Of a stretch of 64,000 nucleotides of DNA, positions 2,459-38,952 are shown piece by piece. The notes under the pieces were generated by a model. It saw only the letters and a program-made list of their open reading frames with translations. It had not been told where the DNA came from and made no database searches. The translations under genes and the position numbers were made by a program. This DNA is from Saprospiraceae bacterium (lineage in GTDB: Bacteria > Bacteroidota > Bacteroidia > Chitinophagales > Saprospiraceae): positions 888-64,887 of the forward strand of contig JBDTUE010000001.1 in NCBI GenBank assembly GCA_040007895.1, in the 5' to 3' direction. The stretch's first letter is position 1. Every line of letters begins with the position of its first letter.

Positions 2459-4447
2459 ATGTTACGTAACCTTCAGATGACAGAGCCAGTATTTGTTCCT
2501 TCCCATGAAATGATCTCTACGTCAAATCTATTTCAATATATGGATTGGCTAAAAAATCAAGGGGGCCCCGATACTAAAGATTATGCTCAACTATGGAAGT
2601 GGTCTACTGAACAAACCGAAGAGTTTTGGAAGAGTATAATCAAATATTTCCATATAACTATCGACGTTGAACATAGTAGTGTAAAATCAGAGGAACCCAT
2701 GCCCAAAACCAAATGGTTTGAGGATGCGACTATTAACTATGGAGAATATTTAGTAAAAAGGGGATCGCCGGAAAAAATAGCGCTGGTTGAATGTAATGAA
2801 ACGGGAACCTCCATAGAAATCACCTGGGAAACTATTATTAATGAAGCAGGCAATTTGCAAATCTACCTTGAATCATTAGGTCTTAAATCAGGTGATAGGG
2901 TAGCGGCTTATTTGCCGAATATTAAAGAAGCCTCGATTTCATTTATAGCATGTTTGGCTAATGGTTATGTCTGGTCCGTCTGTTCTCCGGACTTTGGAGA
3001 AGGTAGTGTGATAGATCGATTCCAACAGATTGAACCTAAAGTACTCCTGGCAGTGGACCAATATCGTTACGGAGGAAAACATTTTGACAGGAAGGAATCT
3101 TTGAAAAAAATTGTTCATTCTATTTCAACGATTCAGTCGCTGATTTTAATCAATGTGGATGACAAAACAGATTATGTTGGTTTAAAGGTGGAAACCATTT
3201 TGTGGAATGAAATAATAAACAAATATGATAAACCGGTATTGAAGTTTAGGCAATTATCATTTAATCATCCTATTTGGATTTTGTATTCTTCCGGCACGAC
3301 TGGATTGCCTAAAGCTATCACACATAGCCATGGAGGTATGTTGCTTGAACATTTGAAGTATGTTCATTTTCACAATGATGTCAAACCAGGTGAAAGATAT
3401 TTTTGGTTTACGACTACCGGATGGATGATGTGGAATTATCTTCACGCTACCTGGTTGGCTGGGGCTATTATAATATTATTCGATGGTAATCCAATGTACC
3501 CGGATATCCATAACTTATGGAATCTGGCTGAATCACAGGGTATAGAACATTTTGGAGCCGGAGCGCCTTTCGTTCATGCCAGTATGAAATCTGATACTGC
3601 ATTACCAACATTGGTGAAACTAAGGAGTATAAGTAGTACAGGATCTCCTTTAAGTGCAGAAGCATACAGCTGGTTATATAAATCTATACAACATCCTTTT
3701 TATGTTTGGTCGATGAGTGGTGGTACAGATGTATGTACAGCCTTTGTCGGTGGATGTCCTATAAGACCCATTTATACGGGTGAAATCCAATGCCGAGCTT
3801 TAGGATGTAATCTCCATGTTTTTGATGAAAATGGAAATTCTGTTCAAAACAAAGAAGGAGAATTAGTAGTTACTCAATCTATGCCTTGTATGCCGATTTA
3901 TTTCTGGAATGATCCTTCTGATAAAAAATACCTCGAATCATACTTTGGGACTTATCCCGGAGTTTGGAGACATGGTGATTGGATTACATTGACCGAACAT
4001 GATAGTTTGATTATTTCAGGAAGATCGGATACGACCTTAAAAAGATTTGGGATACGGATAGGTACTTCAGAAATTTATGCAGCGCTTCAAACCATTCAGG
4101 AAATTGAAGATTCTTTGATCATTCATATCGAGGATAAGGAAGGAGAATCCGTAATGCCATTGTTCGTAAAATTAAAAAATGAATTAGAACTCAGTAAACA
4201 ATTAATAAGTACTATCAAAAACCAAATTAAATCACATTGCTCTCCAAGACATATCCCGGATCATTTTATTCAAGTTAAAGACATTCCTTATACATTAAGC
4301 GGAAAAAAAATGGAAGCCGCAGTAAAGAAATTGTTTATGGGAAAACAACTTAGTGAGATTGCGGCGCAAGGAGCTATGCGCAATCCTGAATGTTTGATTG
4401 AATATGAAATGATAGCAACTTCTGGATTTATGAAGTCGCACCATTAG
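2459..4447 (+). CDS. Acetoacetate-CoA ligase (acetoacetyl-CoA synthetase), AMP-forming
   Basis: 662 aa with the ILYSSGTTGLPKAI AMP-binding motif and an N-terminal LWKWSTEQTEEFWKSI region typical of AACS. The start could instead be Met7 (2477). Confidence 0.8.
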   Translation: MLRNLQMTEPVFVPSHEMISTSNLFQYMDWLKNQGGPDTKDYAQLWKWSTEQTEEFWKSIIKYFHITIDVEHSSVKSEEPMPKTKWFEDATINYGEYLVKRGSPEKIALVECNETGTSIEITWETIINEAGNLQIYLESLGLKSGDRVAAYLPNIKEASISFIACLANGYVWSVCSPDFGEGSVIDRFQQIEPKVLLAVDQYRYGGKHFDRKESLKKIVHSISTIQSLILINVDDKTDYVGLKVETILWNEIINKYDKPVLKFRQLSFNHPIWILYSSGTTGLPKAITHSHGGMLLEHLKYVHFHNDVKPGERYFWFTTTGWMMWNYLHATWLAGAIIILFDGNPMYPDIHNLWNLAESQGIEHFGAGAPFVHASMKSDTALPTLVKLRSISSTGSPLSAEAYSWLYKSIQHPFYVWSMSGGTDVCTAFVGGCPIRPIYTGEIQCRALGCNLHVFDENGNSVQNKEGELVVTQSMPCMPIYFWNDPSDKKYLESYFGTYPGVWRHGDWITLTEHDSLIISGRSDTTLKRFGIRIGTSEIYAALQTIQEIEDSLIIHIEDKEGESVMPLFVKLKNELELSKQLISTIKNQIKSHCSPRHIPDHFIQVKDIPYTLSGKKMEAAVKKLFMGKQLSEIAAQGAMRNPECLIEYEMIATSGFMKSHH

Positions 4448-4526: not shown

Positions 4527-5219
4527 TTATATGCGGCTATAAAGAATACCCATCAAAAGACCGATCACCAGCGAAATAGAGATCAGGATAATTGTTTTAA
4601 ACAATGAATTTCGCTTCTTCAATTTCGTATCAGTTTCGTTCATCGGACTTGTAAGCTGATTTAATATTTTAATTTTTTGATTAAAGTCACCTTTTAACGT
4701 TGATCTTATTTGATTCAAATTATCGAGGGATTGATTGATGTCATCAGGAATAACCGCATTCAGCATTTCTTTGATTCGTTTAGCCATAGTCGGTGACATA
4801 CCGTTTGTAGATATGGCAATTTTTAGCTGACCTTTCTGCACTATACTTGAAAGATAAAAATCACATAAGTCGGGCTTGTCAGCTGTATTGACCAGAATAT
4901 TTTTTTCAGCAGCCATAGCTTTAATAGCCTGATGCAAATCCGGATCATCTGTAGTCAGGAAGATTAAATCTTTTCCCTCAAGATCATGAGGTTCAAATGG
5001 TCTTTGCTCGAAGGTGCAATCAGGAAATTTATTAATTAACTCAAGGATTTCATTCTTTATCAATGGTGCAATGATCCTGATCTTGGCCCCTGGAGAATTT
5101 GATAAAATGGCTCTCAATTTTTCTAAAGCTACATTTCCTCCACCTACAATCAATGAATTTAATTCTGACATTTTTACAAACACCGGAAATAATTCATTTT
5201 TATTGATGGTACTGGTCAT
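4527..5219 (-). CDS. Precorrin-2 dehydrogenase / sirohydrochlorin ferrochelatase (CysG N-terminal domain, SirC/Met8-like) with a C-terminal transmembrane tail
   Basis: LIVGGGNVALEKLRAIL Rossmann motif, ...NILVNTADKPDLCDFYLSSIV..LKIAISTNGMSPTMAKRIKE aligns with the CysG N-domain. The last ~25 aa (LFKTIILISISLVIGLLMGILY) are hydrophobic. Confidence 0.85.
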   Translation of the reverse strand: MTSTINKNELFPVFVKMSELNSLIVGGGNVALEKLRAILSNSPGAKIRIIAPLIKNEILELINKFPDCTFEQRPFEPHDLEGKDLIFLTTDDPDLHQAIKAMAAEKNILVNTADKPDLCDFYLSSIVQKGQLKIAISTNGMSPTMAKRIKEMLNAVIPDDINQSLDNLNQIRSTLKGDFNQKIKILNQLTSPMNETDTKLKKRNSLFKTIILISISLVIGLLMGILYSRI

Positions 5220-5220
5220 G

Positions 5221-5403
5221 TTACCATGAATTTTTATTCTGGATGATGATATAAATATTCTGATAGGTGGTTCCTCTATGCCACTTGGGTATTAAATTTA
5301 AAGAAATCCCTAGTGAAGCCCAGACTGTATCAGGATGCATTCTTTTCACAACCTGGTGAACATTCAAGGGTAGTGACGATAATATTAATGCCTTGAAAAA
5401 CAT
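5221..5403 (-). CDS. Hypothetical 60-aa ORF wedged between hemB and the sirC-like gene
   Basis: ATG at 5403 lies 5 nt after the hemB stop codon, and TAA at 5221-5223 lies 1 nt before the sirC ATG (5219). No recognisable motif, so support is positional only. Confidence 0.25.
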   Translation of the reverse strand: MFFKALILSSLPLNVHQVVKRMHPDTVWASLGISLNLIPKWHRGTTYQNIYIIIQNKNSW

Positions 5404-5408
5404 GTTTG

Positions 5409-6404
5409 TCAATATTCAAAATCATTAATCCATTTTTTGGCCTCTGTCGCTGCATACGAAATGATGATGTCAGCACCGCTACGATTCAATGCAGCCCACG
5501 CTTCCACGTGTGCTGATTGCCTGTTGACCATACCTATTTTTGCCATAGTTTCAATAGCAGCATATTCACCACTTACCTGGTAAGCAGCCAATGGGGAATG
5601 AACTCTTGATTTGATTAAAGAAATAATATCGGTATACAAACCTGAAGGTTTTACCATCAGGATATCTGCTCCTTCCATTTCATCTCTTAATGCACAGTTG
5701 AGAGCGTCTGCACTATTTAAAGCAGATAATTGATACGATTTCCTATCCTTTAAAGCTGTGCCTTTTGGCGAGGAATGACAAGCATCTCTGAACGGGCCAT
5801 ACCATTGAGAACTAAATTTGGTTGAATAACTCATGATCATCGTATCATGATTTCCTTGTATATCCAGGGCCTGACGGATAGATTTGATTCTGCCATCCAT
5901 CATATCACTGGGTGCTATACAATCTACGCCGGCGGCGGCGAGTTCAAGCGCATATAGCGTTAGTACATTTACGGATTCGGCATTCAGCACTTTAGTACCT
6001 TCCTTATTCATTAATCCACAATGTCCATGTGTAGTATAACTGCAGAGACATACATCTGAAGCCAGCCAAATATTATCTCCGTATTGATTTTTTAAATCAC
6101 GAATAATGCTCGAAGCAAATGAAAAATCAACAGGGTGTTCACTTTTATGTTCAGGGACTGGGAATAACAAAAATTTAGCAATTCCTTCCCGTAGGGCATT
6201 ATCTATGACCACATGAATAGTTTCCACAGTTTGGACTTGTACTCCATTCATGAATTCAACTAATCTTGGAGTCTTGAGGTTCTCTTCGACAAAAATGGGT
6301 AGGATAAAACTTTTATGATTCAGCCGGAGTGGACTTACCAACGAACGCACCAAAGCATTCGATCTCAGGCGGCGATATACTGAAGGGTATACTTCTTTTT
6401 CCAT
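5409..6404 (-). CDS. hemB: Porphobilinogen synthase (delta-aminolevulinate dehydratase)
   Basis: YRRLRSN..LVSP..L....FILPIFV N-terminus, CLCSYTTHGHCG metal site, ADILMVKP and YQVSGEYA motifs. The start overlaps the upstream fusion gene by 40 nt. Confidence 0.95.
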   Translation of the reverse strand: MEKEVYPSVYRRLRSNALVRSLVSPLRLNHKSFILPIFVEENLKTPRLVEFMNGVQVQTVETIHVVIDNALREGIAKFLLFPVPEHKSEHPVDFSFASSIIRDLKNQYGDNIWLASDVCLCSYTTHGHCGLMNKEGTKVLNAESVNVLTLYALELAAAGVDCIAPSDMMDGRIKSIRQALDIQGNHDTMIMSYSTKFSSQWYGPFRDACHSSPKGTALKDRKSYQLSALNSADALNCALRDEMEGADILMVKPSGLYTDIISLIKSRVHSPLAAYQVSGEYAAIETMAKIGMVNRQSAHVEAWAALNRSGADIIISYAATEAKKWINDFEY

Positions 6405-9115
6405 TTGGTGAAAGCATCAAAGGTAGGAAATACGATGGGGTTGATTCCAAGTTCTTTTAACTGATCATAGGTTTTGCCCGGAAGACAAACATGTATTATC
6501 TCTTCGGGTAATAGTGCTTTTACCGAATCATAATGTGCAAAACAATTCCAAAAGATCAATTTTGAAGATGTCAGTTTGTACTTATCTATAAGACTGGATT
6601 GATATTGAATATCATACGTAGACACCGTCTGGAAACCTTCATTAGCCCATTTCATGGCAGAAGATTCACTAGTCAAAATCTTCATTTCATCAGGATTAAT
6701 AGACATTAATTCTGTTTGGAATAGAGAATGAATAGATTTAAATCCCATCGAATCAGCACAACCTTCTACCCAAATCCCTAATTGTGCTAATTTGTACCAG
6801 GTCGTAGTACCAGCTGCCCATACTCGATGATTAATGAATGATTCCGGCGCTATTTCATTTACGGCAGAAATATGGGAAATGAAATAGGAATTGGAAGCAC
6901 CAACAATTTTGCCCGGAGATGAATACGTTTTTATACTTGTAAATCCGAGTTGATCTGAACTAATAATATGATCTGGATGAACATGATCTAAATTAAGTTC
7001 AAGACCGTACCAGTCTTCAAACTCATTTCCATACTGGTCAATACCTTTAGCAAGAATTGTTTCCTGTTGATTAAGTGTTATGGAAGAGACACCAAATTTT
7101 TGAATACAACCACTACCGTAGTTATTTGCAATCCGTTTCTCAGCCACACACTGTTCATGATTCTTTACATCTTTGATTGTAGCTAATACTTCGTTTGCAA
7201 ACAAATTGGATTTCAAACATTCCGTCACAATAGCACCCTGACACGGAGCCGGCAGACAATCTATTAAGGGCAAAACCATGATCTTTTTATCATGCAACAA
7301 TCCAGTGATCAGCGTAGCATTTTCATTATTCTTAAACATTCGATCGATTCCGGCAAATGCCAAAATAATGCCGTCATACTCACCCGTCTTTAATTTGGAT
7401 AACCTGGTTTCTATATTTCCACGGATGGGTACAGCTTCCAGTTTAATATCGGAAGATAGTTGAGGCAATGCTTTTTTGAGAAAATCAAGTGCCATTAACT
7501 CTCTCCTGAAAGAACATGTGCCAATTCTAATCGTTTTATTCTCTTTTATATTGTCGATGATGTTAGAATTAAAAATAACAATATCTCTTACTTCTGCCCG
7601 GTCAACCACAGCAAACGTATGATCACCAAAAAAATGTTCTGTGCTCATATCTTTTAATGAATGCACAGCGATATCGGCAACTCCCTGGTCAAGATCATTA
7701 AAAATGTCTTCTGTAAAAAAATCTATTCCTTCCTGAGTATGCAAAGGAATGTTGATTAACCGGTCACCTTTGCTATCTTTTAACTTTACTTCAATTTCAA
7801 GGTTTGGAAAGTGGACATTAATCTTTGACTTTACAATTTCGATCTGGGCTATTGATAGTCGTGAGCTTCTTCCGGTTATTATTATTTTTTGGTTTAAAAC
7901 AGAATTCAGACTTTTTGCTAAATGTTGAATGTCAGCAATACTATGTCTAGGTGTAATAGTAATTCTTAAACATTCCTGACCTTTTTTTACCGTTGGTTGA
8001 TTAATGGGTTGTACATATATTCCAAATTCATTCAACAATCTATCGGCAATCGCTTTACATCTGCTTGCATTGCCTATCAGAATATTAGTGATATGTGTTT
8101 CTGCTCCGGTAAAATGAATGTTGAATTGAGCTAAACCGGATCTGAGTATAACGATATTTTTAAAAAAATCATTTCTTAAAACTTGATTTGTCTTAATTTC
8201 ATGGATACTATTAACTGCAGTTACACAAATCGAAGGGGGTAGGGATGTAGTGAAAATAAACCCACTCCCGAAACTTCTGACAAAATCTATCCAATTATTG
8301 GATGCAGCGATATAGCCACCAAAAACTCCGATGGCCTTGGAAAGTGTACCATTAATAAAATCAACTGATCTTTCCAAGCCAAACTTTTCAAGCATGCCAG
8401 CTCCGGTATTCCCATAAAGCCCCACCGCATGAACTTCATCTATGTAAGTAAGGCATTGATATCTTTTTGCAAGTTCAATAATGGCTGAAAGAGGTGTCAC
8501 TGTTCCTGAAATAGAATAAACACTCTCAAATACAATTATTTTAGGTGCTGATGCAATAGTGGTTTTTAAAATATGTTCAAGATCAGCAACATCATTGTGT
8601 TTAAAAATTAGTTTTTTATTGGAGGTTGCCCTCATACCTTCAATCATGGACGCATGATTCTCTTCGTCAGATATAAATATTAAATCCGGAATCATTCGCC
8701 CCAATGTACATAACGTAGTCTGATTTGCCTGGTAAGCACTGTTGAACAAAAGAGCATTTTCTGTTTTATGCCAGCCAGCAATTCTTTTTTCAAGTTGACG
8801 ATGGTAAATAGTGCTACCTGATATGTTACGGGTACCACCGCTTCCTGTCCCTACCTTTGAAGTGGTTTCATTACTGATATCGACATTGCCAGACCAACTA
8901 CCTAAAGCTAGATAATCATTCGTACACCAATTAGTGGCTTGCATAGAGATTCCCTGATCATTAATATATTGAAATTTGGGAAATGTAGTAATCTGCTTAT
9001 CAATAGAAATAAAGTGTCTGTAAGATCCGCTTGATTTAAGGGCATCTAATTTTGATTTGATAAACTCATCAAAATCAAAGGAAGAAACCGAAATATCAGG
9101 ATCTTTTTCTGACAT
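6365..9115 (-). CDS. Tri-domain fusion: 5-aminolevulinate synthase (about aa 1-405), hydroxymethylbilane synthase HemC (about aa 410-700) and a uroporphyrinogen-III synthase-like HemD domain (about aa 700-916)
   Basis: One uninterrupted 2751-nt ORF. ALAS strings: NWCTNDYLALG, GTGSGGTRNISGST, NHASMIEGMR, YIDEVHAVGLYG, NGTLSKAIGVFGGYIA, YVQPINQPTV. HemC strings: GRSSRLSIAQ, DIAVHSLKDM, PAPCQGAIVTEC, GSGC. The tail has VWAAGTTTWYKLAQLG and LPGKTYDQLKELG, which are HemD-like. Confidence 0.85.
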   Translation of the reverse strand: MSEKDPDISVSSFDFDEFIKSKLDALKSSGSYRHFISIDKQITTFPKFQYINDQGISMQATNWCTNDYLALGSWSGNVDISNETTSKVGTGSGGTRNISGSTIYHRQLEKRIAGWHKTENALLFNSAYQANQTTLCTLGRMIPDLIFISDEENHASMIEGMRATSNKKLIFKHNDVADLEHILKTTIASAPKIIVFESVYSISGTVTPLSAIIELAKRYQCLTYIDEVHAVGLYGNTGAGMLEKFGLERSVDFINGTLSKAIGVFGGYIAASNNWIDFVRSFGSGFIFTTSLPPSICVTAVNSIHEIKTNQVLRNDFFKNIVILRSGLAQFNIHFTGAETHITNILIGNASRCKAIADRLLNEFGIYVQPINQPTVKKGQECLRITITPRHSIADIQHLAKSLNSVLNQKIIITGRSSRLSIAQIEIVKSKINVHFPNLEIEVKLKDSKGDRLINIPLHTQEGIDFFTEDIFNDLDQGVADIAVHSLKDMSTEHFFGDHTFAVVDRAEVRDIVIFNSNIIDNIKENKTIRIGTCSFRRELMALDFLKKALPQLSSDIKLEAVPIRGNIETRLSKLKTGEYDGIILAFAGIDRMFKNNENATLITGLLHDKKIMVLPLIDCLPAPCQGAIVTECLKSNLFANEVLATIKDVKNHEQCVAEKRIANNYGSGCIQKFGVSSITLNQQETILAKGIDQYGNEFEDWYGLELNLDHVHPDHIISSDQLGFTSIKTYSSPGKIVGASNSYFISHISAVNEIAPESFINHRVWAAGTTTWYKLAQLGIWVEGCADSMGFKSIHSLFQTELMSINPDEMKILTSESSAMKWANEGFQTVSTYDIQYQSSLIDKYKLTSSKLIFWNCFAHYDSVKALLPEEIIHVCLPGKTYDQLKELGINPIVFPTFDAFTKWKKKYTLQYIAA

Positions 9116-9117
9116 AC

Positions 9118-10788
9118 TTATTCTTTTGTTATCAATTGAGGGTTTTGATAAATGAAATCACCAAATGAACTGAACTCTTTTTTCTTTACACTATATTGTT
9201 GAAGGAGTGGATCTAGAATACTTAAAATTTGTTCCTCGTTGACACTTTCGTACGATTTCATGTTTAAGCGTAAGCCCAACCGGTCTCCGCCGAGGTGCAG
9301 ATTATAATGTCCATATGAAGTTCCAACCAATCCTATCTCAGCTACATATGGCCTCCCGCATCCATTAGGACAGCCTGTCATACGGATACTGATTGGATCA
9401 TCCAGAAGTTCATACTTAGCCAGGAGTGGTTCAATCTTACCAACTAAAGTCGGCAGATATCGTTGACCTTCTGCAAGTGCAAGTGGGCAGGTATTCATGG
9501 CGACGCAAGCTATTGCATTCCTTCTCATAGGTGTAGCCTGCTCGGTATGCGAGATTATCTGGTATCGATATAAAATTTCTTCTATCTTCTTTTTATTTTT
9601 TTGACTTATATCACTAACAATCAATTTTTGATTGGCAGTGAACCTGAAATTTGCGAGACCGGTTTGTGCAATTTCATACAAAGCTGTTTTAAAGGCTACT
9701 TTTTCATTGGCTATTCTCCCGTTTTCAATGAATAAAGTATAATGCCATTTCCCTTCATGGTTCTGTAACCAACCAAAATGATCTGTGCGTTCGGTAAATT
9801 CATAAGATCTTTCTTTTTCAAATTTAAATCCACATCTTGATTCTACCTCTGCTTTGAATTGATCCACTCCCATTTTATCAATGGTATATTTTAGCCTGGC
9901 TTGTTTTCTATCTCCCCGATTGCCATGGTCGCGCTGCACGGTCATGATTTCATAGATAGCTTTTAGTGTTTTTTCTTCGGTATCAGTGAACCCAATGACG
10001 GTACCTAATCTTGGATAAGTCTCTTTATTTCCGTGCGTGGTACCTAATCCTCCACCAATAGAAATATTGAAACCTTTTAATTTATCGTTTTCAATAATAG
10101 CAATAAGGCCAATGTCATTCGTAAATACATCCACATCATTATTAGGAGGGATGGCTATTGCTATTTTAAATTTTCTTGGTAGATATCGATCCTGGTATAA
10201 TGGATCTGTTTCGTCTTCTTTTTTCAATAAAGGCTCTCTGTCGAGCCAGATCTCATAATACCCATTTGATTTTGGTAAAGCAAGCGTACTGATCTTATCT
10301 GCATATTGAAAAACTTCCTCATGAATTTTGCTTTCTTTTGGATGAGCGCTGCAGATTACATTCCTGTTTACATCCCCGCAGGCAGCAATACTGTCCAGAC
10401 GTTGGGCAGCAAAATCTTTAAGTGTGGGCTTTAAATGGGATTTTAAAATCCCATGCAATTGAATGGTTTGTCTTGTGGTGATTTTAATTACACCGGTACT
10501 ATGCTCACCGGCAATATGATGCATCGCAATCCACTGGGCTGGTGTCAAAAATCCACCTGGCAATCTCAACCGGATCATAAAGGAATATAACCACTCAAGT
10601 TTTTTCTGAGCCCGTTCATCCCGTTGATCGCGATCGTCCTGCTGATACATACCGTGATGTTTGATGAGGGATTGGTCATCTTCACGGATAGCTCCAGTGA
10701 GATTGTCTTCGAGACTTTGACTAAGCGTGCCCCGTAAACCATCGCTTTTCATCTTTATTTTTTCAACTTGTGAAAGGACTACACTCAT
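9118..10788 (-). CDS. cysI: Assimilatory sulfite reductase (NADPH) hemoprotein beta subunit
   Basis: 556 aa with TTRQTIQLHGI, and the CPLALAE and TGCPNGCGRP siroheme/4Fe-4S cysteine cluster. Confidence 0.95.
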   Translation of the reverse strand: MSVVLSQVEKIKMKSDGLRGTLSQSLEDNLTGAIREDDQSLIKHHGMYQQDDRDQRDERAQKKLEWLYSFMIRLRLPGGFLTPAQWIAMHHIAGEHSTGVIKITTRQTIQLHGILKSHLKPTLKDFAAQRLDSIAACGDVNRNVICSAHPKESKIHEEVFQYADKISTLALPKSNGYYEIWLDREPLLKKEDETDPLYQDRYLPRKFKIAIAIPPNNDVDVFTNDIGLIAIIENDKLKGFNISIGGGLGTTHGNKETYPRLGTVIGFTDTEEKTLKAIYEIMTVQRDHGNRGDRKQARLKYTIDKMGVDQFKAEVESRCGFKFEKERSYEFTERTDHFGWLQNHEGKWHYTLFIENGRIANEKVAFKTALYEIAQTGLANFRFTANQKLIVSDISQKNKKKIEEILYRYQIISHTEQATPMRRNAIACVAMNTCPLALAEGQRYLPTLVGKIEPLLAKYELLDDPISIRMTGCPNGCGRPYVAEIGLVGTSYGHYNLHLGGDRLGLRLNMKSYESVNEEQILSILDPLLQQYSVKKKEFSSFGDFIYQNPQLITKE

Positions 10789-10841
10789 TATATAAAAGTT
10801 ATTTCAATTATTTTAAATTCTTAATAATCAATCTTTATACA

Positions 10842-12524
10842 TTAATAGACATCGGCTTTGTAAATTCCGGATTCTTTTAATTCATTCCAATAGGCTTCTG
10901 ATTCCGGAGCACTTTTCCCGCTATGTGCATAAATGACATCAATCATAGCTTTTTCTACATCTTCACTCATTGGACTACGTGTACCGCTGATAAAGATGTG
11001 TGCGCCTTGTTTTATCCATTCGTAAATTTCTTTGCCTTTTTCTGCAATGCGATGTTGAACATAAATCTTTTCTTTCTGATCTCTCGACCATGCAAGGTCT
11101 ACGTGATGCAATGTACCGGTAGATGCATATTGCTGGATCTCTGATTGGTAAAAGAAATCACTGGTAAAATGTTGTTCTCCGAAAATCAACCAATTCCGCC
11201 CGCTGGCTCCCGAAGAATCTCTTTCTTCTATAAAAGAGCGCATAGGGGCCATACCTGTGCCGGGTCCTATCAATATAATATCCGTTTCAGGAGAAGGTAA
11301 CCGGAAGGATTTATTTTTATGGATATAAAATTCCAATTCAGTTCCTTCTTCAAAATCAGATAACATTTCACTACATAAGCCATATCTCTTTTCTCCATCG
11401 ATCACGAACGTACTCTTACTTACCAAAATATGAACTTCATTTTCCCTGACCTGGGGCGATGAACAGATAGAATATAATCTTGGCAATATCTCGGTTAGTG
11501 AAGGTATAAGTTCTATAAACTGGTAAGGTTTCGATACTGGATAAATATTTAAAAGATCAATTAAGTCCATCCTGACTTTTGGAATACTTTGGCCAATGAT
11601 CTCGGCATACTTTTGAACCTGAGATTCTTTAAGGTATGCAATATTGAGTCTGTTAGTAAAAATGTCCAGTAAAGTATGTCCTGATCCTTTATAAGGTACG
11701 CTTAAATTAGGATCGACATTGACTGTTGTAAATATCTTTTCCAACACAGATTTCTTATTCCTGGGTATTATCCCCAAGGCATCACCAGGTTCGTACATTA
11801 CCGGTTCTTCCGTCTTTATTTCTATATGGTTTGTTTCTTTATTCGCAGTACGCCCGTTTAAATTGATTTTAGTTTTTATAATACCGTGATAATATTTTTT
11901 TCCCGTATTTATTTTCGGAGCTATAGGTAGTGTTGTTTCAATTTCATCTGCAGGGAATGAATTGATATAGGTCTGAAACCAGGTAGAAGCGATACTTTGA
12001 TATTCAAGATCACATCGTTGAATCGGAAAGATTGCCTGTGCTCCCAGTTGAGTTAATTTTTCATGAACATCTTCACCCGCTTTACAAAACATAGGGTAGG
12101 AGGTATCCCCTAAAGCAAGGACCGCAAATTCAAGATTTGGATATTTAACTTCCGAAGACATCAGATAATCAAAAAACTTTTTAGAGGAAGGTGGTGGATC
12201 TCCATCACCATGGGTGCTGAGAATGATTACAAGATTTTTTTCATGTGCCAATTCTTCCGGTTTGTACGTGTCCATCCCGGCAACTTTTACTTTGGCTCCC
12301 TGTTTTTTGCCAATTCCAGAAAATTCGATAGCAAGTTTTTTAGAATTGCCCGTATCTGTGCCGTATAGTATTGTAAATTTTTTAAGGCTGCTCGTTGAAA
12401 CAGTTTCCTTTGGAATAGTAGCTGAGATTAATCCCGCTATATAACCATTCATCCAAATCAACTCCTCTTTGGAAATCTTCTCTATAAAATCATTAAGCGT
12501 CCGTAGTTTTCCTTCAGATAACAT
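10842..12524 (-). CDS. cysJ: Sulfite reductase (NADPH) flavoprotein alpha subunit
   Basis: Flavodoxin domain (ILYGTDTGNSKKLA) followed by an FAD/NADPH domain (RLYSICSSP, GPGTGMAPMRSF, ...YKADVY C-terminus). Confidence 0.9.
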   Translation of the reverse strand: MLSEGKLRTLNDFIEKISKEELIWMNGYIAGLISATIPKETVSTSSLKKFTILYGTDTGNSKKLAIEFSGIGKKQGAKVKVAGMDTYKPEELAHEKNLVIILSTHGDGDPPPSSKKFFDYLMSSEVKYPNLEFAVLALGDTSYPMFCKAGEDVHEKLTQLGAQAIFPIQRCDLEYQSIASTWFQTYINSFPADEIETTLPIAPKINTGKKYYHGIIKTKINLNGRTANKETNHIEIKTEEPVMYEPGDALGIIPRNKKSVLEKIFTTVNVDPNLSVPYKGSGHTLLDIFTNRLNIAYLKESQVQKYAEIIGQSIPKVRMDLIDLLNIYPVSKPYQFIELIPSLTEILPRLYSICSSPQVRENEVHILVSKSTFVIDGEKRYGLCSEMLSDFEEGTELEFYIHKNKSFRLPSPETDIILIGPGTGMAPMRSFIEERDSSGASGRNWLIFGEQHFTSDFFYQSEIQQYASTGTLHHVDLAWSRDQKEKIYVQHRIAEKGKEIYEWIKQGAHIFISGTRSPMSEDVEKAMIDVIYAHSGKSAPESEAYWNELKESGIYKADVY

Positions 12525-13332
12525 GAATAGTTTGATTTTTGGTTATTGCGTTGATTGGATTAAAAACCGAAGCGGTATCCACTATTGTATTCAAAAATTC
12601 TGGAATGATTTGATGAATCATCTTACCAATAATAATGATAGACGGTGACTTGAATGAAATCTCTGAATCCATTTTCATAAAAGAGGATAACGTAAATATG
12701 GAAGTGCGCTGAGCTTTACTGGTTGCTTCTTCAATAATAGCAAGCGGCATTTCCGGATCTGCTTCATGTTCTACTAAAGCTTTAATTAGTTTTTTTAATG
12801 GACTTACTGACATATAAAAAACCAAGGTATCACTGGTCGTTGCCCAATGTTTTAATGTATTTTCATCAGGATTATTCGTTGAAGACATTGTATGAATCTG
12901 AACACCTTCAGCGATATCTCTGCCTGTCAATGCAATTCCAAGGCTTGCCGCAGCGCCCGAAGCTGCCGTAATACCCGGGATTATTTCATAAGAAATTCCT
13001 GCATTTAAGAGCGATTTGATTTCAGCCTGAACATTACTATATATTGCAACGTCACCACCTTTTAATCGGACTGTCTTCAATCCACTAAGTGCTTTTTGAA
13101 CTAAGAGTGAGTTGATACTTTTTTGATCTGTGGATTCTTTCTCATAACCCTGCTTTCCAACAAAAATAATTTCAGCATGTTTATTAGCATAAAGAGTAAT
13201 GATTTCTGGATTGACTAAACGGTCAATCAATATACATTCCGCTGAGTTTAATGCTTCAACTAAACGCATAGTCACTAAGCCCGGATCTCCGGGGCCAGCA
13301 CCAGCAAAAATGATATGTGGTTTATGCGCCAT
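12514..13332 (-). CDS. cobA: Uroporphyrinogen-III C-methyltransferase (SUMT)
   Basis: FAGAGPGDPGLVT N-terminal motif, VRLKGGD and IPGITAASGAAA are typical of the tetrapyrrole methylase family. It sits between cysN and cysJ. Confidence 0.9.
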   Translation of the reverse strand: MAHKPHIIFAGAGPGDPGLVTMRLVEALNSAECILIDRLVNPEIITLYANKHAEIIFVGKQGYEKESTDQKSINSLLVQKALSGLKTVRLKGGDVAIYSNVQAEIKSLLNAGISYEIIPGITAASGAAASLGIALTGRDIAEGVQIHTMSSTNNPDENTLKHWATTSDTLVFYMSVSPLKKLIKALVEHEADPEMPLAIIEEATSKAQRTSIFTLSSFMKMDSEISFKSPSIIIIGKMIHQIIPEFLNTIVDTASVFNPINAITKNQTIHVI

Positions 13333-13335
13333 GAA

Positions 13336-14601
13336 TTATTGTGCGATGGATTCCTGGGGAATTTGAAATAAAATAGCGGCAACTGTTTTATGGCTGGTTT
13401 CATCTATAAGGATAGCGCTACCGGTTGTTTTTGAAACTTCATAAGGATCATACGCTAAATCTGATGCAGTTTGAATCTGAACATGAGCAACCTGGTTGAG
13501 TTCTAATCTCTGAATGTCGGTCTCATGATTTAATGTGTTTACATTAATCCGGTAATGAATCGCCTTGACAGCAGCTTTAACCAATCTGCTATGTTGTTGA
13601 AGTAAATACTTATTGCCAACGATCAGTGGTTTTTCATCCATCCAGCAAAGTATAGCTTCATGAGTTTTAGTTACAATGGGTAATTCTGTAGATTTTACAA
13701 TTAAATCACCTCTGCTGATATCGATATCATCTTTTAAATGAAGCACTGCAGGTGTTCCGGCTTCGACGGAATCAACCACTTTTCCATGATGTTCAATCAT
13801 GGATATCGTAGAACTTAATCCCAAGGGTAATACGGTAACATGATCACCGGTTTTGAATCCATCGCCGGCCACCTGTCCCGCATATCCTCTATAATCATGC
13901 AGATCTTCCGTCTGTGGTCTTATCACGTATTGAACCTGGAACCTGGTTTCGCCTTCTTCATCGGATTTGTGCAATTCAATAGTTTCAAGCAAGGGTAATA
14001 AAGGTGTTCCGGTATACCAAGGCATGAAAGATGAAGGATGCACTACATTGTCTCCGCTTAATGCTGAGATGGGAATAAACTGAACTTGTCGCAGGTTCAA
14101 CTTCTCTGCTATTTCTTTATAGTCTTCTACTATTTGATTGTATCGTGCTTCATCGAAATCAACTAAATCCATTTTGTTAATTGTTACGACGATCTGTGGT
14201 ATTTTCAATAAGGAAGCAATGATGGAATGCCGGCGGGTTTGTTCTATCACTCCCTGGCGTGCATCAATCAATAAGATCATCAGCTCAGAATTAGAAGCAC
14301 CGGTGACCATATTGCGGGTGTATTGAATATGACCAGGAGCATCAGCGATGATGAACTTTCTCAATGGACTTGAAAAATATCTATACGCTACATCTATGGT
14401 AATACCCTGTTCGCGTTCAGCACGTAAGCCATCCGTGAGTAATGCGAGATCGATTTGTGTAGTCTTCTTTGCTTTGGATACTTTTTCCAATTGTTCGATC
14501 TGATCTATCCAGATGTTTTTACTGTCATATAACAACCGGCCTATCAACGTACTCTTACCGTCATCTACACTTCCTGCCGTAATTAATCTTAATAACTCCA
14601 T
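13336..14601 (-). CDS. cysN: Sulfate adenylyltransferase subunit 1 (GTPase), with no fused APS kinase domain
   Basis: GSVDDGKSTLIGRLL P-loop, DAPGH and NKMD GTPase motifs. At 421 aa it has no CysC extension. Confidence 0.95.
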   Translation of the reverse strand: MELLRLITAGSVDDGKSTLIGRLLYDSKNIWIDQIEQLEKVSKAKKTTQIDLALLTDGLRAEREQGITIDVAYRYFSSPLRKFIIADAPGHIQYTRNMVTGASNSELMILLIDARQGVIEQTRRHSIIASLLKIPQIVVTINKMDLVDFDEARYNQIVEDYKEIAEKLNLRQVQFIPISALSGDNVVHPSSFMPWYTGTPLLPLLETIELHKSDEEGETRFQVQYVIRPQTEDLHDYRGYAGQVAGDGFKTGDHVTVLPLGLSSTISMIEHHGKVVDSVEAGTPAVLHLKDDIDISRGDLIVKSTELPIVTKTHEAILCWMDEKPLIVGNKYLLQQHSRLVKAAVKAIHYRINVNTLNHETDIQRLELNQVAHVQIQTASDLAYDPYEVSKTTGSAILIDETSHKTVAAILFQIPQESIAQ

Positions 14602-14622
14602 TTCTATAAAACTTAATATCGA

Positions 14623-15531
14623 TTAAAAATATCCATTGATTTTTCGATCTTCCATAGCTGCTTCTGTTTGTCTGTCATCGATGCGGGTTTCTCCACGCTC
14701 ACTGATCTTACTGGACAAAATTTCAGAAATAACACTGTCTAGGGTATTTGCTGTAGATTCCACAGCAGCAGTACAGGTCATATCGCCAACTGTCCTATAG
14801 CGTACTTTTTTCTTTACTAAGATATCCGTTGGATCCAGTGTGATAAAAGGTGATACAGCTATGTACTGGCCTTCGTGCGCGATTACTTCTCTTTCATGAG
14901 AAAAGTATATGGAGGGCAAAGGAATATTTTCCTGGCGGATATAATTCCATACATCGATCTCTGTCCAGTTGCTGATAGGAAATACTCTTACATTTTCACC
15001 TTTGGTGATACGTCCGTTAAATATATTCCAGAGTTCAGGACGTTGCAGTTTAGGATTCCATTGTCCGAATTCATCCCTGACAGAAAATATTCTTTCTTTA
15101 GCTCTTGCTTTTTCTTCATCCCGGCGGGCTCCTCCGATGCAAGCATCAAATTTGAATTCTTCTATGGTATCCAGTAATGTATGAGTCTGCAACCAATTGC
15201 GACTGGCAAATTTACCAGTCGGCTCCGTTAAGTTCTTCGCCTTGATCGTATCCTCGACTTTCCGTACGATCAGTTTTGATTTCGTTTTTAAAGCAAGATC
15301 ATCTCTATAATCCAACGCTTCCTGGAAATTATGTCCGGTATCAATATGAACTAATGGAAACGGAATAGGAGCAGGGCTAAATGCCTTGATCGCAAGATAT
15401 ACTAATGTAATCGAGTCTTTCCCCCCACTAAACAATAATGCCGGACGCTCAAATTGTGCTGCGGTCTCCCGCATGATATAGATGCTTTCTGCTTCCAGCT
15501 CTTTAAGATGATGTATATGATGATTCAACAT
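14623..15531 (-). CDS. cysD: Sulfate adenylyltransferase subunit 2
   Basis: LKELEAESIYIMRE..., FSGGKDS PP-loop and DEEKARAKERIFS. The track start at 15576 overlaps cysH by 41 nt. The ATG at 15531 (MLNHHIHHLKELE) leaves a 4-nt gap and matches the usual CysD N-terminus. Confidence 0.9.
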   Translation of the reverse strand: MLNHHIHHLKELEAESIYIMRETAAQFERPALLFSGGKDSITLVYLAIKAFSPAPIPFPLVHIDTGHNFQEALDYRDDLALKTKSKLIVRKVEDTIKAKNLTEPTGKFASRNWLQTHTLLDTIEEFKFDACIGGARRDEEKARAKERIFSVRDEFGQWNPKLQRPELWNIFNGRITKGENVRVFPISNWTEIDVWNYIRQENIPLPSIYFSHEREVIAHEGQYIAVSPFITLDPTDILVKKKVRYRTVGDMTCTAAVESTANTLDSVISEILSSKISERGETRIDDRQTEAAMEDRKINGYF

Positions 15532-15535
15532 AAAT

Positions 15536-16270
15536 TTAATTCGATGTTTTGACCGGAGCATGGACGTGAAGTCCACACTCTTTATTTTCTTTATTTTCCC
15601 ACCACCATCTACCAGCTCTGAAATCTTCGCCTGGATTTATAGCCCGGGTACAAGGCGCACAACCAATCGATACAAAACCTTTATCATGAAGTGGATTATA
15701 TGGAATGTCGTGCGACCTGATAAAGGATTTTAATTCTTCAGTGCCCCATTGAAGTAGTGGATGTACTTTGATGACTTGATGTTGCTCATCCCATTCTACC
15801 ATTGGCATATGACTACGATCTGGTGAATGTGAAGCCCGAATCCCGGTAATCCAGATTTTTTTACCTGCTAAAGCTCGTTGTAGAGGTTCTACTTTCCGGA
15901 TAAAACAACATTGTTTTCTGTTATCCACAGATTCATAAAAACTATTAGGGCCATGGACTTCAATAAATTGAGCCAGAGAATTTTCCTGTGGGTGGTATGA
16001 TTTTATTGGTCTTTTATATTTCTCAAGAGTACGAGACCAGGTAGAATATGTTTCTGGGAAAAGTCTCCCTGTATCCAAAGTAAACGTTTCGATTCCGGAT
16101 TTACTTTCAGCGATCAGGTGAAACAGGACCTGATCTTCTTCACTGAAACTGGTAGATAAAGTAACAGCATGAGGATACCTTGTGTCCAGGGTCCTTAATA
16201 AGGTTACCAGATCCGTTTCTTCCTCAAGAAGTTGATTGATGTTATCGATATCGTTTTGTAAACTGGTCAT
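15536..16270 (-). CDS. cysH: Adenylylsulfate (APS)/PAPS reductase, thioredoxin-dependent; carries the Fe-S cluster cysteine pattern of the APS-reductase type
   Basis: KQCCFIRKVEPL plus SIGCAPCT (CC...CxxC) and the C-terminal KECGLH motif. Confidence 0.9.
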   Translation of the reverse strand: MTSLQNDIDNINQLLEEETDLVTLLRTLDTRYPHAVTLSTSFSEEDQVLFHLIAESKSGIETFTLDTGRLFPETYSTWSRTLEKYKRPIKSYHPQENSLAQFIEVHGPNSFYESVDNRKQCCFIRKVEPLQRALAGKKIWITGIRASHSPDRSHMPMVEWDEQHQVIKVHPLLQWGTEELKSFIRSHDIPYNPLHDKGFVSIGCAPCTRAINPGEDFRAGRWWWENKENKECGLHVHAPVKTSN

Positions 16271-16681
16271 TTTTTTTATTAAATAAAGTTGACAACCTGG
16301 GTTGTTTCATATTACACCGACTAAATTTTTGGAATGGAATGATCAAAAAAACAAGACGGCTGATGAATCAGCAATAGCAACAACAACAATAATACGCACA
16401 AGGAGAAGTTGTTGGGTTTCCGTTATGAGGTTGTCTTATCTTCATTCGATTTTTAACAGCGACAAAGATAATACCAAAAATCCTAACCTGACTAAGTTTG
16501 TGGACCAAAATCTTTTTGTATTGTGATTTTCAAAAAGTTAAGAAAAATTAAAATTCGACTAATGAGTTCCTGCTTCAAATAGATGGACTTTAGTTTAAAA
16601 ATTGAAATTATCTTCCTTGCATTCCTTAAAGATTCTTAGAATACACATAGCTTTACATCCATTCACCAACCAGGGATTTTT

Positions 16682-19600
16682 ATGAAATTACGCACTCGAC
16701 TGTTTAGTTTATTTATCGTTTTTGCCATTTTTCAAGCATGTAAAAATGAATCTGTAACGGCGCCAAATCCTGAATTAATAGGAAAAGTATTCAGATCATT
16801 TACAAAGGGAATTATTTCCTCCAAATCGCTTTTGAAATATGTTTTCCTTGAAGATATGGTTTCTGAAGAAATGGTTGGCAAACCTCTTGCCAAATCTCCG
16901 GTTTCATTGTCCCCGGCTAGTCCAGGGATTTCATACTGGGAAACTCCAAATACGCTTGTATTTAAACCAAATCAAAACTTAAAAAGTGGTAGTCAATATA
17001 CAGCAACAGTCAATCTTGAATCTATACAACCATCACTGTCTAAAGAGCTGCCAAAACTAGTATATACCTTTCAAACCAGGGAAATATCTTTTACGGTATC
17101 TAAGCCATCATTTATCCTGAAGGCAGATCGCAATTTTCAACTCATCGGTGAAGTTCAAACTTCTGATGTATCTGATCCCCTATTGATAGAAAAGATATTA
17201 AATGCGCAACAAGATCAAAACAAGCTGGATATTTCCTGGGTCCATCATCCCGAATCAAATAGTAGCAACTATACTATTAATAATATAACCCGGGCAAAAT
17301 CTTCACAGATATCAATTCATTGGGATGGTACTCCGCTCAATCTTAATAGCAAAGGTGATTATTTGATTCCAGCAATTGATCCAGATGTATTCAAACTTTT
17401 AGATGTGACTTTTGAAGCAGATCCTCAGGCTAGATGGGTTTCTTCATTTTCTGATAATCTTTTATCAAATCAAAACCTGGATGGTCTCATTACAGTTAAA
17501 GGAAAAGCGATTACACTTCGTCATGTGATTGAAGGGAACAATGTGTATTCTTATATCACCGGGCAGATCGATGGCGATATAACTCTTACATATTCTCCCG
17601 GGATCACTTCTTCCAATAACAAAAAGCTGACTGAGTCTACCTCCTGGGAAGTGAATGTACCCGGATCAAACCCTCAGGTCAGGTTTGTGGGAAAAGGAAC
17701 TATCATACCCCAGGCAAATGATATCATACTACCATTTGAAGCGAAAGGACTAAAAGCAATTGATGTCGAAGTATTTAAAATCTTTGATAATAATATTCTT
17801 CAATTTTTACAATCCAACCAACTCGACGAATCCAATGATCTATACAGAGTAGGCAGATTGGTATCGCAGTCAAAAATTGAATTAAATACGATTTCATCTA
17901 CAATCGGGACCAATACATGGAACCATTTTGCCATAGACTTGAATACCTTATTGAAAACAGATGCTAACGCCATTTACCAGGTGCGGATTGGTTTTAAACC
18001 TTCCTATACTTCGTTGACTTGTTTGTCTAAATACAAAGAATCGCCTCTTGAATCGGATGAATTAACCAGTTTTTATGAGGATAATTATTACGGTTCTGAA
18101 GGTTATTACGAGGATTATAAATGGGAAGACCGGGATGATCCTTGTAAACCCGCTTATTACAACCGGGATCAGTTCATTGCGAAGAATGTCCTGATATCTA
18201 ATCTGGGCATCATCGGTAAAGTTTCCGACAAACAACTATTCGTTGCAGTGACCGATTTAAGAACTACTGAACCAATAGCAGGATGTTCAATAGATGTTTA
18301 TGATTTTCAACTTCAGAAGATAGCAACCCTTACCACGGACGCTGAAGGTATAGTGCAACAAATGATTTCAGGCATTCCTTATGCGTTGATTGCAAATTAT
18401 CAGGGATCCAAAGGCTATCTGCGTATGGCTGAAGGTCAGAACTTATCTATGAGTGCATTTGATATTGATGGCCAGCAAGTGAATAAAGGATTGAAAGGAT
18501 TGATTTATGGAGAACGCGGAGTGTGGAGGCCAGGAGATAGTATTTATCTGAATTTCATTTTGAATGATAAGGAATTGAAACTACCGGCTAATCATCCTGT
18601 TAAACTGAATGTCTATGATGCACAAAACAAACTTGTCATTCAAAAGATCACTTCTCAATCTATCGGTCATATCTATTCATTTAATTTCAAGACATCCGCA
18701 GACGCACCTACCGGAAATTGGAGGGCATCTATCAAGGCAGGTGGGGCCGATTTTACTAAAACCCTGAAAATTGAAGCGATCAAGCCAAATCGATTAAAAA
18801 TCAAATGGGATGCTGGTGAAGAGATTACTGCGGCACAAAATTCTATTAATTTGAATGCAACGTGGTTGACGGGATTACAGGCTTCAGGTTTATCGGCTAA
18901 AATAAATTCGAAATGGTCACCTTCTGCTACCGGTTTCCCGGCTTATAAGGATTATGAATTTCAGGATCCCGCCAGGATGAATAACGATCAAACGAATCTT
19001 ACGTTGTTTGAAGGCCCGTTAGATGCTAGCGGTAATGCCAATGTCCCATTGAAAATTTCAAAAGATTTTAAGCCATCGGGCAAAATGAATCTTCGTTTTA
19101 ATATTGAAGTTTCAGAACCGGGCGGAGATTTTAGTTCGCAGGTCCAATCATCTGTTTATCATCCCTACAAAAATTATGCAGGTGTAAAATTGCCTGCTGA
19201 TCCATGGGGCTATAAGACGTTAAACCTGAATAATTCATCAACTATAAGTTTTGTCGACATCGATACGAAGGGTAAGTTTCAGGCAAACCGAAAACTATCG
19301 GTAGGGTTGTATGAATTGGAATGGAGATGGTGGTGGGAACAAAGGGACAATGCGGTAGCAGGTTTTAATTCATCCAATCATACCAAAGCAATACAAAAAG
19401 CTAATATCACTACCAATTCAAATGGCCTTGCAGAATGGAAAGTAAGTATAAATCATTGGGGCCGCTATTTAATAAGAGTATGTGATACGGAATCGGGCCA
19501 TTGCAGTGGTGACTTTGCTTATGCGGGTTGGCCAGATGAAGGTAATGATCAAAACCATTTTGATATGGCCACCTTACTGAGATTGGGTACTAACAAGGAA

Positions 19601-31642: not shown

Positions 31643-32191
31643 ATGAAAATATATACCCGGACAGGTGATGATGGAAAGACTTCTTTATACGGAGGAACCC
31701 GTTTGCCAAAACATCACATTCGCATCGAAGCTTATGGAAGCGTAGATGAATTAAATGCATGGATAGGTCTTATAAGAGATGAGCTTTCACTTGGCGCACA
31801 ATATCATGCTTTAAAAGAAATACAGGATAGATTATTTACGATTGGTTCCAACCTGGCTTCAGATCCTGATCATGAAATGCCAACTCCGGATATCATAGCA
31901 ACAGATATAGAATTTTTAGAAAAAGGTATTGATGAAATGACAGCGCTTTTACCACCGTTGAAACATTTCGTTTTGCCCGGAGGTCATAGAAGAGTAAGTG
32001 AAGCTCATATTGCCAGAACGGTTTGCCGTAGAGCAGAACGAAGAGTGATTGCTCTCAGTTTAGAACAAAAGGTAGAGCCCTTAATCATCATTTTTATCAA
32101 TAGATTATCAGATTATTTATTTGTACTCAGCAGGTGGATTGCCAAAGAAGTGGATGCTGATGAAGTAAAATGGATTCCGCGAAAATCATGA
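31643..32191 (+). CDS. PduO-type ATP:cob(I)alamin adenosyltransferase
   Basis: MKIYTRTGDDGKTSL N-terminus and the FVLPGG...ARTVCRRAER core. Confidence 0.9.
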   Translation: MKIYTRTGDDGKTSLYGGTRLPKHHIRIEAYGSVDELNAWIGLIRDELSLGAQYHALKEIQDRLFTIGSNLASDPDHEMPTPDIIATDIEFLEKGIDEMTALLPPLKHFVLPGGHRRVSEAHIARTVCRRAERRVIALSLEQKVEPLIIIFINRLSDYLFVLSRWIAKEVDADEVKWIPRKS

Positions 32192-38947: not shown

Positions 38948-38952
38948 TGATC

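Follow-up and report, generated by a model that had tools for sequence, protein, structure and literature searches.

In the Bacillus subtilis cysH operon (cysH-cysP-sat-cysC-sumT-sirB-sirC) and in nirBDC-cysG of Escherichia coli and Salmonella, the last steps of siroheme synthesis are co-transcribed with the enzymes that need siroheme. These systems begin at uroporphyrinogen III drawn from the C5 trunk of tetrapyrrole synthesis, in which 5-aminolevulinate (ALA) is formed by the Glu-tRNA route. The cluster described here, at positions 4527–16270 of a 64-kb stretch of the genome of a Saprospiraceae bacterium (contig JBDTUE010000001.1; hereafter the window, meaning the whole stretch, to which all coordinates given without a locus handle refer), differs in that the whole trunk from glycine is included among the genes for sulfate assimilation, beginning with a 5-aminolevulinate synthase (ALAS). 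It is probably one cysteine-controlled unit that joins sulfate reduction to a self-contained, C4-route (ALAS-dependent) supply of siroheme for CysI, the hemoprotein of sulfite reductase.

Trunk genes beside the genes for one product are also found in the cobalamin clusters of Lactobacillus reuteri and clostridia, which contain hem genes, and in clostridial hemA-sirC-hemC-hemD/cobA-hemB-hemL operons. Those clusters, however, use glutamyl-tRNA reductase and HemL (C5 route), form the sole trunk of organisms without heme synthesis, and lie outside sulfur-assimilation operons. In Streptomyces, the clusters for asukamycin and for other C5N-unit compounds carry a second, C4-route ALAS that serves one product in an organism that also has the C5 route; there, ALA enters the C5N ring of a secondary metabolite and not a tetrapyrrole, and the cluster is without HemB, HemC, and HemD. 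In textbooks, bacterial ALAS is confined to α-proteobacteria. A 2026 review states that only α-proteobacteria possess ALAS (PMC13564367), and a literature search found nothing on ALAS in Bacteroidota (Bacteroidetes, Chitinophaga, Saprospiraceae) or on a cluster linking ALAS to siroheme, so that the unusual character ascribed to the cluster in an earlier note on this DNA stands. Public annotation pipelines already label these proteins 5-aminolevulinate synthase; the sequences are thus not unseen, and it is the system that is apparently undescribed.

The cluster consists of ten co-directional genes on the minus strand, running from 16270 to 4527. The list of open reading frames (ORFs) and direct reading of the sequence reproduced exactly the gene run and every junction that the earlier note had given:

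15536–16270, minus strand: cysH, followed by a 4-nt gap
14623–15531, minus strand: cysD, with ATG at 15531 (the mechanical ORF call begins at an upstream GTG), followed by a 21-nt gap
13336–14601, minus strand: cysN, followed by a 3-nt gap
12514–13332, minus strand: cobA, encoding uroporphyrinogen-III C-methyltransferase (SUMT), followed by an 11-nt overlap
10842–12524, minus strand: cysJ, followed by a 53-nt gap
9118–10788, minus strand: cysI, followed by a 2-nt gap
6365–9115, minus strand: ALAS-HemC-HemD fusion gene, 916 aa, followed by a 40-nt overlap
5409–6404, minus strand: hemB, followed by a 5-nt gap
5221–5412, minus strand: small ORF, "orf60", of 60–63 codons (63 from a TTG start, or beginning at an ATG at 5403), followed by a 1-nt gap
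4527–5219, minus strand: sirC-like gene, 230 aa

A single transcript from the leader upstream of cysH to sirC is plausible from the arrangement of the genes: junctions range from −40 to +53 nt, sites resembling terminators are no commoner within the cluster than chance predicts (6 against 8.3 expected, the sole intergenic one lying in the leader), and the junctions of relatives are varied but short.

Gene families were assigned with Pfam and NCBIfam profiles judged against their curated cut-offs. The cysH product scores 261.8 on NF002537 (cut-off 154) and 240.8 on TIGR02055, the model for adenosine 5′-phosphosulfate (APS) reductase (cut-off 235.3), and carries the iron–sulfur cysteines CC...CxxC (QCCF, GCAPC) together with ECGLH. 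On these sequence features it is assigned as an assimilatory APS reductase and not as a reductase of 3′-phosphoadenosine 5′-phosphosulfate. No APS kinase is encoded in the cluster, cysC being absent and CysN lacking an APS-kinase domain; the predicted route is therefore sulfate to APS to sulfite to sulfide. The small subunit and the GTPase subunit of sulfate adenylyltransferase, CysD and CysN, score 439.1 on NF003587 (cut-off 195) and 526.5 on TIGR02034 (cut-off 336.1), respectively, and the cobA product scores 224 on the SUMT model TIGR01469 (cut-off 185). The cysJ-like flavoprotein contains the Flavodoxin_1, FAD_binding_1, and NAD_binding_1 domains and scores 499.5 on TIGR01931, which is under the equivalog cut-off of 668.15. 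CysI, the siroheme/4Fe-4S subunit of sulfite reductase, scores 729.8 on NF010029 (cut-off 457), and the user of siroheme is thus encoded within the same cluster as the genes that make it.

The fusion protein that follows CysI has three parts:

7889–9115, minus strand: ALAS domain, residues 1–409
6974–7888, minus strand: HemC (hydroxymethylbilane synthase) domain, residues ~410–714
6365–6973, minus strand: HemD-fold (uroporphyrinogen-III synthase-like) domain, residues ~715–916, placed by its predicted fold

The α-oxoamine synthase family is large and its members cross-match one another's models, so that the ALAS-like domain could in principle be another member, such as Kbl, BioF, or an enzyme like serine palmitoyltransferase, in which case the cluster would lack the first step. 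This is extremely improbable. The domain scores 484.5 on the ALAS model TIGR01821 (cut-off 338.55), whereas the true Kbl of the window, which serves as an internal control, scores 299, under the cut-off. Against the Rhodobacter capsulatus ALAS structure 2BWN it reaches 364 bits, and against the best structure of any other family member 195 bits. In the alignment to 2BWN it keeps GTLSKAIG (containing the lysine that binds pyridoxal phosphate), NHASMIEG, IDEVHAVG, and SGGTRNISG, and the pyridoxal-phosphate lysine and the glycine-site and succinyl-CoA-site residues of the R. capsulatus enzyme, which we take to be Arg21, Asn54, Thr83, His142, Asp214, His217, Lys248, and Arg374 in its numbering, all fall within motifs that are identical in this alignment. 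In addition, ALAS is fused or adjacent to HemC, HemD, HemB, or SUMT in three architectures (see below). By curated model, motifs, and structure match, the domain is therefore assigned as a 5-aminolevulinate synthase. It resembles the alphaproteobacterial and mitochondrial enzymes (HemA/HemT; 2BWN, 7X98) in being 42–48% identical over the full domain, in sharing the active-site motifs, and in passing the curated model, and differs from the alphaproteobacterial ones in its Bacteroidota host, its separate grouping, its fusion to HemC-HemD or to SUMT, and its linkage to siroheme and not to heme or bacteriochlorophyll. The Kbl (glycine C-acetyltransferase), a second α-oxoamine synthase, is encoded at 56269–57459 on the minus strand, scores 671.7 on TIGR01822, and is 31% identical to the ALAS domain.

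The HemC domain matches PF01379 at E = 1.3e-43 and porphobilinogen deaminases in the Protein Data Bank (PDB) at 1e-42, and barely passes TIGR00212 (169.9 against a cut-off of 164); the cysteine that carries the dipyrromethane cofactor, in GSGCIQKFG, is nearly invariant across the family. A profile search of PDB sequences found no HemD. Since the sequence-level tests of the window protein were empty, the HemD assignment was made by fold and by weak matches across the family. Fifty relatives were aligned, an AlphaFold2 model was built (pLDDT, the model's own confidence measure, 90.9), and the model was compared with the PDB by Foldseek. The 13 best matches were all HemD, from seven organisms, with E values from 5.5e-7 to 7e-4, probability 1.00, and TM scores of 0.38–0.61, and unrelated folds began only at E = 1.4e-2. 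The Pfam profile HEM4 matched weakly in 17 of 51 family members (best E = 9e-4). The model thus supports with confidence a two-lobed, flavodoxin-like HemD fold for the C-terminal domain; the hemD call of the earlier note holds by fold, its agreement with HemD structures being clear in the model, and fails by sequence, where the window protein has no match. Proteins in which hydroxymethylbilane synthase and uroporphyrinogen-III synthase form one polypeptide exist elsewhere, for example in Leptospira. Compared with these, the HemD part here is very divergent and compact, and the N-terminal ALAS puts steps 1, 3, and 4 of the trunk in one protein, with HemB (step 2) separate.

Porphobilinogen synthase, HemB, is identified by PF00490 (E = 8.7e-104) and NF006762 (342.4 against 297). 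Its gene overlaps the HemC-HemD coding sequence by 25 or 40 nt in all lineages, including the window (6365–6404); together with an overlap between ALAS and HemC-HemD genes in three other loci (L095–L097; see below), this suggests translational coupling. The sirC-type protein scores 118.4 on TIGR01470 (CysG N-terminal; cut-off 62.3) and also matches PF13241 and PF14824, and is assigned from these profiles as a precorrin-2 dehydrogenase with a presumed role as sirohydrochlorin ferrochelatase. Because no SirB, CbiX, or CbiK gene occurs in the cluster or in the window, iron chelation is putatively assigned to this protein.

In relatives, the slot between hemB and sirC is occupied by a DUF2490 gene of 221–234 aa, whose product has a signal peptide and a weak outer-membrane β-barrel signal, and SirC is often fused to a permease of the TauE/SafE family (491–498 aa in total). 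The window gene orf60, which has no Pfam match of its own, aligns to DUF2490 residues 3–39 and to no other part (E = 4.8e-5, six-frame test), and is thus a truncated N-terminal remnant of the DUF2490 gene that is probably not functional. A role for orf60 as a small protein of the pathway was discarded on this ground, and its listing among the pathway-operon genes in the earlier note is corrected accordingly to a decayed DUF2490 gene. The tail of the sirC-type protein (4527–4640) has one C-terminal transmembrane helix that aligns to the first helix of the SirC::TauE fusions. With only ~40 residues and one helix remaining, both accessory genes have been lost in the window genome. Among the relatives, L092 is also without DUF2490, and L081 and L084 are without TauE.

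As the earlier note had proposed, all steps from glycine and succinyl-CoA to siroheme are encoded: ALAS, HemB, HemC, a HemD-fold domain, SUMT, and a dehydrogenase/chelatase of the CysG-N/Met8p type. In the proposed scheme, CysDN, the APS-reductase CysH, and CysJI would convert sulfate to sulfide, and ALAS would combine glycine with succinyl-CoA to give ALA. From ALA, uroporphyrinogen III would be made by HemB, HemC, and the HemD-fold domain, SUMT would convert this to precorrin-2, and the CysG-N/SirC-type enzyme would oxidize precorrin-2 and presumably insert iron to give siroheme.

The cluster is not the one-off rearrangement that the earlier note had allowed for, as its order is kept in five independent metagenomic lineages of Saprospiraceae type (L081–L083, which form one lineage, L084, L090, L091, and L092). 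The fusion proteins of these lineages are 52–60% identical to that of the window, and the order common to all five is cysH-cysD-cysN-cobA-cysJ-cysI-fusion-hemB-(DUF2490)-sirC(::TauE). In total, about 22 clusters of full-length ALAS-HemC-HemD proteins (890–919 aa) were found in addition to partial ones, and those with a named source are from Saprospiraceae. A metagenome scan with the HemC-HemD alignment yielded 4 loci; a scan of a genome collection with the fusion, using back-translated patterns, returned only alphaproteobacterial ALAS genes (42–48% identity) and no Saprospiraceae genome. The flanks of the cluster in the window are as follows:

16682–22189, divergent from the cluster: alpha-2-macroglobulin (A2M) gene, on the cysH side
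2459–4447, convergent with the cluster: acetoacetate-CoA ligase gene, on the sirC side

The same A2M gene lies at the cysH side in four of the five lineages, and the same CoA-ligase, biotin-carboxylase, and aminotransferase genes lie at the other side in two of them.

Control of the cluster by cysteine is suggested by the 411 nt upstream of cysH, in which the following elements were recognized:

16527–16541, minus strand: conserved block TTAACTTTTTGAAAA, nearly invariant in five Saprospiraceae-type loci
16463–16478, minus strand: conserved block TTTGGTATTATCTTTG, invariant in all five aligned loci
16368–16445, minus strand: leader ORF encoding MKIRQPHNGNPTTSPCAYYCCCCYC, 25 codons and a stop, ending C-A-Y-Y-C-C-C-C-Y-C with 7 Cys in the last 10 codons
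16345–16372, minus strand: short hairpin GCUGA/UCAGC, overlapping the leader stop codon and followed by CGUCUUGUUUUUUU, a candidate intrinsic terminator or attenuator

Block TTTGGTATTATCTTTG contains TATCTTTG (16470–16463), which fits TAnnTTTG, the consensus of the Bacteroidota-type −7 promoter box, and block TTAACTTTTTGAAAA could either bind a regulator or belong to the promoter. Both blocks also occur ahead of cysH in L084 and L090–L092. The leader contains the only run of four TGY codons in the window (0.07 expected). Each of the six Saprospiraceae-type loci has, at the corresponding position, a poly-Cys leader ORF of 17–29 codons with 6–7 Cys, whose stop codon lies 97–120 nt before cysH. 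The hairpin, which is followed by a conserved CCG(U/C)CUU and U-rich tract, is strong in two of the six loci, L091 (−13.4 kcal/mol, z −4.7) and L081 (−12.3 kcal/mol). In both of these, the 5′ arm is made of Cys codons, so that a ribosome stalled at these codons would block formation of the hairpin. A second conserved pairing, CCG(U/C)CUU ... AAG(N)CGG, with the U-run and a conserved UUCCAAAAA between its arms, occurs in the window (~16300–16358), L084, L090, L091, and L092. No Rfam family reached its gathering score across the window, and the leader region gave only a chance match to a small nucleolar RNA (E 0.27); the region thus matches no riboswitch or leader family already described.

Leaders with Cys codons have been predicted in Actinobacteria (PMC1262725), and poly-Cys short ORFs of mycobacteria are cysteine-responsive attenuators that act through ribosome stalling (bioRxiv 10.1101/834739). 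The leader of the window resembles these in that a short ORF containing consecutive Cys codons precedes genes for cysteine and sulfur metabolism; it differs in phylum, in that the ORF is not leaderless, and in the hairpin and U-run that follow it. By this analogy, the poly-Cys leader suggests cysteine-responsive control of the whole operon, and the sulfur regulation conjectured in the earlier note gains support from the conservation of the leader.

The hem genes of the cluster have close counterparts outside the Saprospiraceae-type loci. In one search, stand-alone ALAS proteins of 407–421 aa fell into more than 120 clusters at the 90% identity level, and HemC-HemD proteins of 503–530 aa account for 95 of 120 among the matches listed; both come from metagenome-assembled genomes (MAGs) of Chitinophagaceae or other Bacteroidota. 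All seven loci of this type (L085–L088, L095–L097) contain the unit ALAS, HemC-HemD, HemB, (DUF2490), SirC, (TauE), and the MAGs that carry the module include GCA_044227925.1 and GCA_964581975.1. The module adjoins a divergent gene for a ~700-aa reductase of the NirA/Sir type in L086–L088, a gene for an Rrf2-type regulator, cysH-cysD-cysN-cobA, and a Sir-type reductase in L095 and L097, and genes for assimilatory nitrate/nitrite reductase in L085 and L096. In a third architecture, a SUMT::ALAS fusion of 668–669 aa is encoded directly after a gene for a NIR_SIR reductase, with a 4-nt overlap that couples the two genes translationally. SirC, a siroheme-dependent enzyme, or both lie within 10 kb of every ALAS context with enough flank. 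From these gene neighborhoods, the hem genes are interpreted as a portable siroheme module that travels with siroheme-dependent sulfite and nitrite reductases in Chitinophagales.

The ALAS proteins of all architectures group together, with ~60% identity among themselves and ~45% identity to 80 alphaproteobacterial ALAS proteins, which are 70% identical among themselves. The tree, a midpoint-rooted neighbor-joining tree, separates the Bacteroidota from the alphaproteobacterial sequences and gives no direction of transfer. In the Saprospiraceae-type lineage, the module would have entered a cysHDN-cobA-cysJI operon, with fusion of ALAS to HemC-HemD. A likely starting point of this fusion is an overlap of 38–56 nt between the ALAS and HemC-HemD genes, as in L095 (11190–11227), L096 (11190–11245), and L097 (11190–11227).

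The Chitinophagaceae-type modules have no poly-Cys leader. Directly before the −7 box, all seven loci have an inverted repeat, ATTAGTCTAC-N7-GTAGGAAAT, a candidate CymR/IscR-like operator by its sequence, at the following places:

L085, 6640–6680
L086, 2930–2975
L087 and L088, on each side of the divergent region
L095, 9935–9975
L096 and L097, 9930–9975

The repeat also precedes the divergent Sir gene, and there is a similar site ahead of cysH, beside the Rrf2-family gene (L095, 3046–3459). A gene for a small Rdx protein (selenoprotein-W-like, PF10262) lies divergent upstream of the ALAS module or beside the Sir reductase gene (L095, 9591–9881; L096, 9530–9823; L097, 7600–7893). In the window, the repeat TAGTCTAC-N7-GTAGG was tried as a regulator site and rejected, its matches being at chance level; this lineage does not use the repeat. 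The region 2241–2330 of L093, a locus of the SUMT::ALAS lineage, lies upstream of the Sir gene that begins at 2331 and contains a short ORF, MTEGSFGCCCEH, and after it a strong terminator (GACCCTTCG...CGAAGGGTTTTTTATTT), whose 5′ arm is complementary to the 5′ part of this ORF. This arrangement is read, from the sequence, as a second, independent design of a Cys leader.

The Chitinophagaceae-type module is a separate unit, preceded by an operator-like repeat and a −7 box of its own, and can thus be transcribed independently of cysHDN. This feature would suit a housekeeping role, in which ALAS, HemC-HemD, and HemB are the general route to uroporphyrinogen III, feed heme as well, have their own promoter, and lie beside cys genes by mere gene order. 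Such a role is very unlikely, however, given the arrangement in the lineage of the window, where the module is in mid-operon, between cysI, only 2 nt away, and sirC, so that a promoter would have no space, and where the poly-Cys leader precedes the entire module. Moreover, SirC always closes the module, and another lineage has a fusion of ALAS with SUMT; both SirC and SUMT commit uroporphyrinogen III to routes other than that to heme, and a siroheme enzyme adjoins the module in every sampled context.

Several observations weigh against the interpretation of the cluster as a cysteine-controlled unit for sulfate reduction and siroheme supply. The hairpin in the window is weak (−5.3 kcal/mol, z −1.0), its equivalent in L084 is insignificant, and no clear antiterminator was found in the leader region, so that the coupling mechanism is uncertain and may be intrinsic termination, Rho, or translation. 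The σ70 promoter scan gave fewer sites than shuffled sequences, and its result was left unused, as the model is unsuited to Bacteroidota; since the scan does not cover promoters of this phylum, the cluster may contain internal promoters. The HemD part of the window protein has no Pfam match even at E ≤ 1, so that the HEM4 threshold is failed, and no NCBIfam match. Ferrochelatase activity is present in CysG and Met8p and absent in Bacillus megaterium SirC; it is a property that cannot be read from sequence. Lastly, the rest of the window contains no other hem gene, and the window alone says little on the C5 and late heme genes of the organism.

The absence of further hem genes from the window also bears on a different explanation, in which the cluster is the sole tetrapyrrole pathway of a heme auxotroph that makes only siroheme, has no C5 pathway, and takes up heme or dispenses with it. 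Heme auxotrophy is known in some Bacteroidota, and the cluster ends at siroheme, with no hemE, hemN, hemG, or hemH found in it. The carriers found are all uncultured MAGs or metagenome contigs. The window encodes a PduO-type cob(I)yrinic acid a,c-diamide adenosyltransferase (31643–32191) with no cobalamin synthesis genes nearby, which suggests corrinoid salvage. This explanation is nonetheless considered unlikely, in part because of menaquinone genes of the futalosine route, recognized in the window:

27048–27911: MqnP-like prenyltransferase
45777–46508: UbiE/MenG methyltransferase
50934–52112: MqnE
52109–52903: MqnA/D-family protein

These genes imply a respiratory chain, which is normally cytochrome-dependent, and thereby hint at respiration and hence a need for heme. 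In addition, the module is widespread in Chitinophagaceae (the more than 120 stand-alone ALAS clusters described above), which as far as known are aerobic heterotrophs that make heme in the ordinary way. A trunk controlled by a cysteine-sensing leader would also be ill suited to the housekeeping supply of heme, and is unlikely to serve as one; for this reason a dedicated second trunk is favored over a sole pathway in a heme auxotroph. We lean towards the view that an ordinary C5/heme pathway is also kept elsewhere in the genome, which would make the cluster a second, product-dedicated trunk. The window also contains a branched-chain amino acid cluster, ilvD-ilvB-ilvN-ilvC, at 37670–43032 on the minus strand.

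In the proposed mechanism for the cysteine-controlled unit, ribosomes would stall at the Cys codons of the leader when cysteine is scarce, transcription would then proceed from cysH to sirC, and the sulfate-reducing enzymes and the siroheme of CysI would be made in step. The use of ALAS in place of the Glu-tRNA route would free the siroheme supply from heme-controlled ALA synthesis. As a metabolic design, this would be one cofactor with its own precursor supply, uncoupled from the ALA formation that heme controls; the pathway that depends on the cofactor would regulate this supply through its end product. With the poly-Cys leader, a cysteine sensor that works through the ribosome would be added in a phylum in which leaders of this kind have been little studied.

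ALAS is a large and well-conserved family in environmental Bacteroidota, linked in every case to siroheme synthesis and siroheme-dependent reductases, and this clade bears on the evolutionary origin of ALAS. The ALAS-HemC-HemD and SUMT::ALAS fusions are candidates for the study of substrate channeling and for the production of ALA or uroporphyrinogen. For the Chitinophagales as a whole (Saprospiraceae and Chitinophagaceae), we see an even chance that two parallel trunks operate, a C5 trunk for heme and a separately regulated C4 trunk only for siroheme, switched on with sulfate or nitrate assimilation. If so, a bacterium would for the first time be seen to have duplicated the whole trunk for one product, ALA synthase would have its first physiological role in tetrapyrrole synthesis outside α-proteobacteria and eukaryotes, and the question of the origin of ALAS would be reopened.

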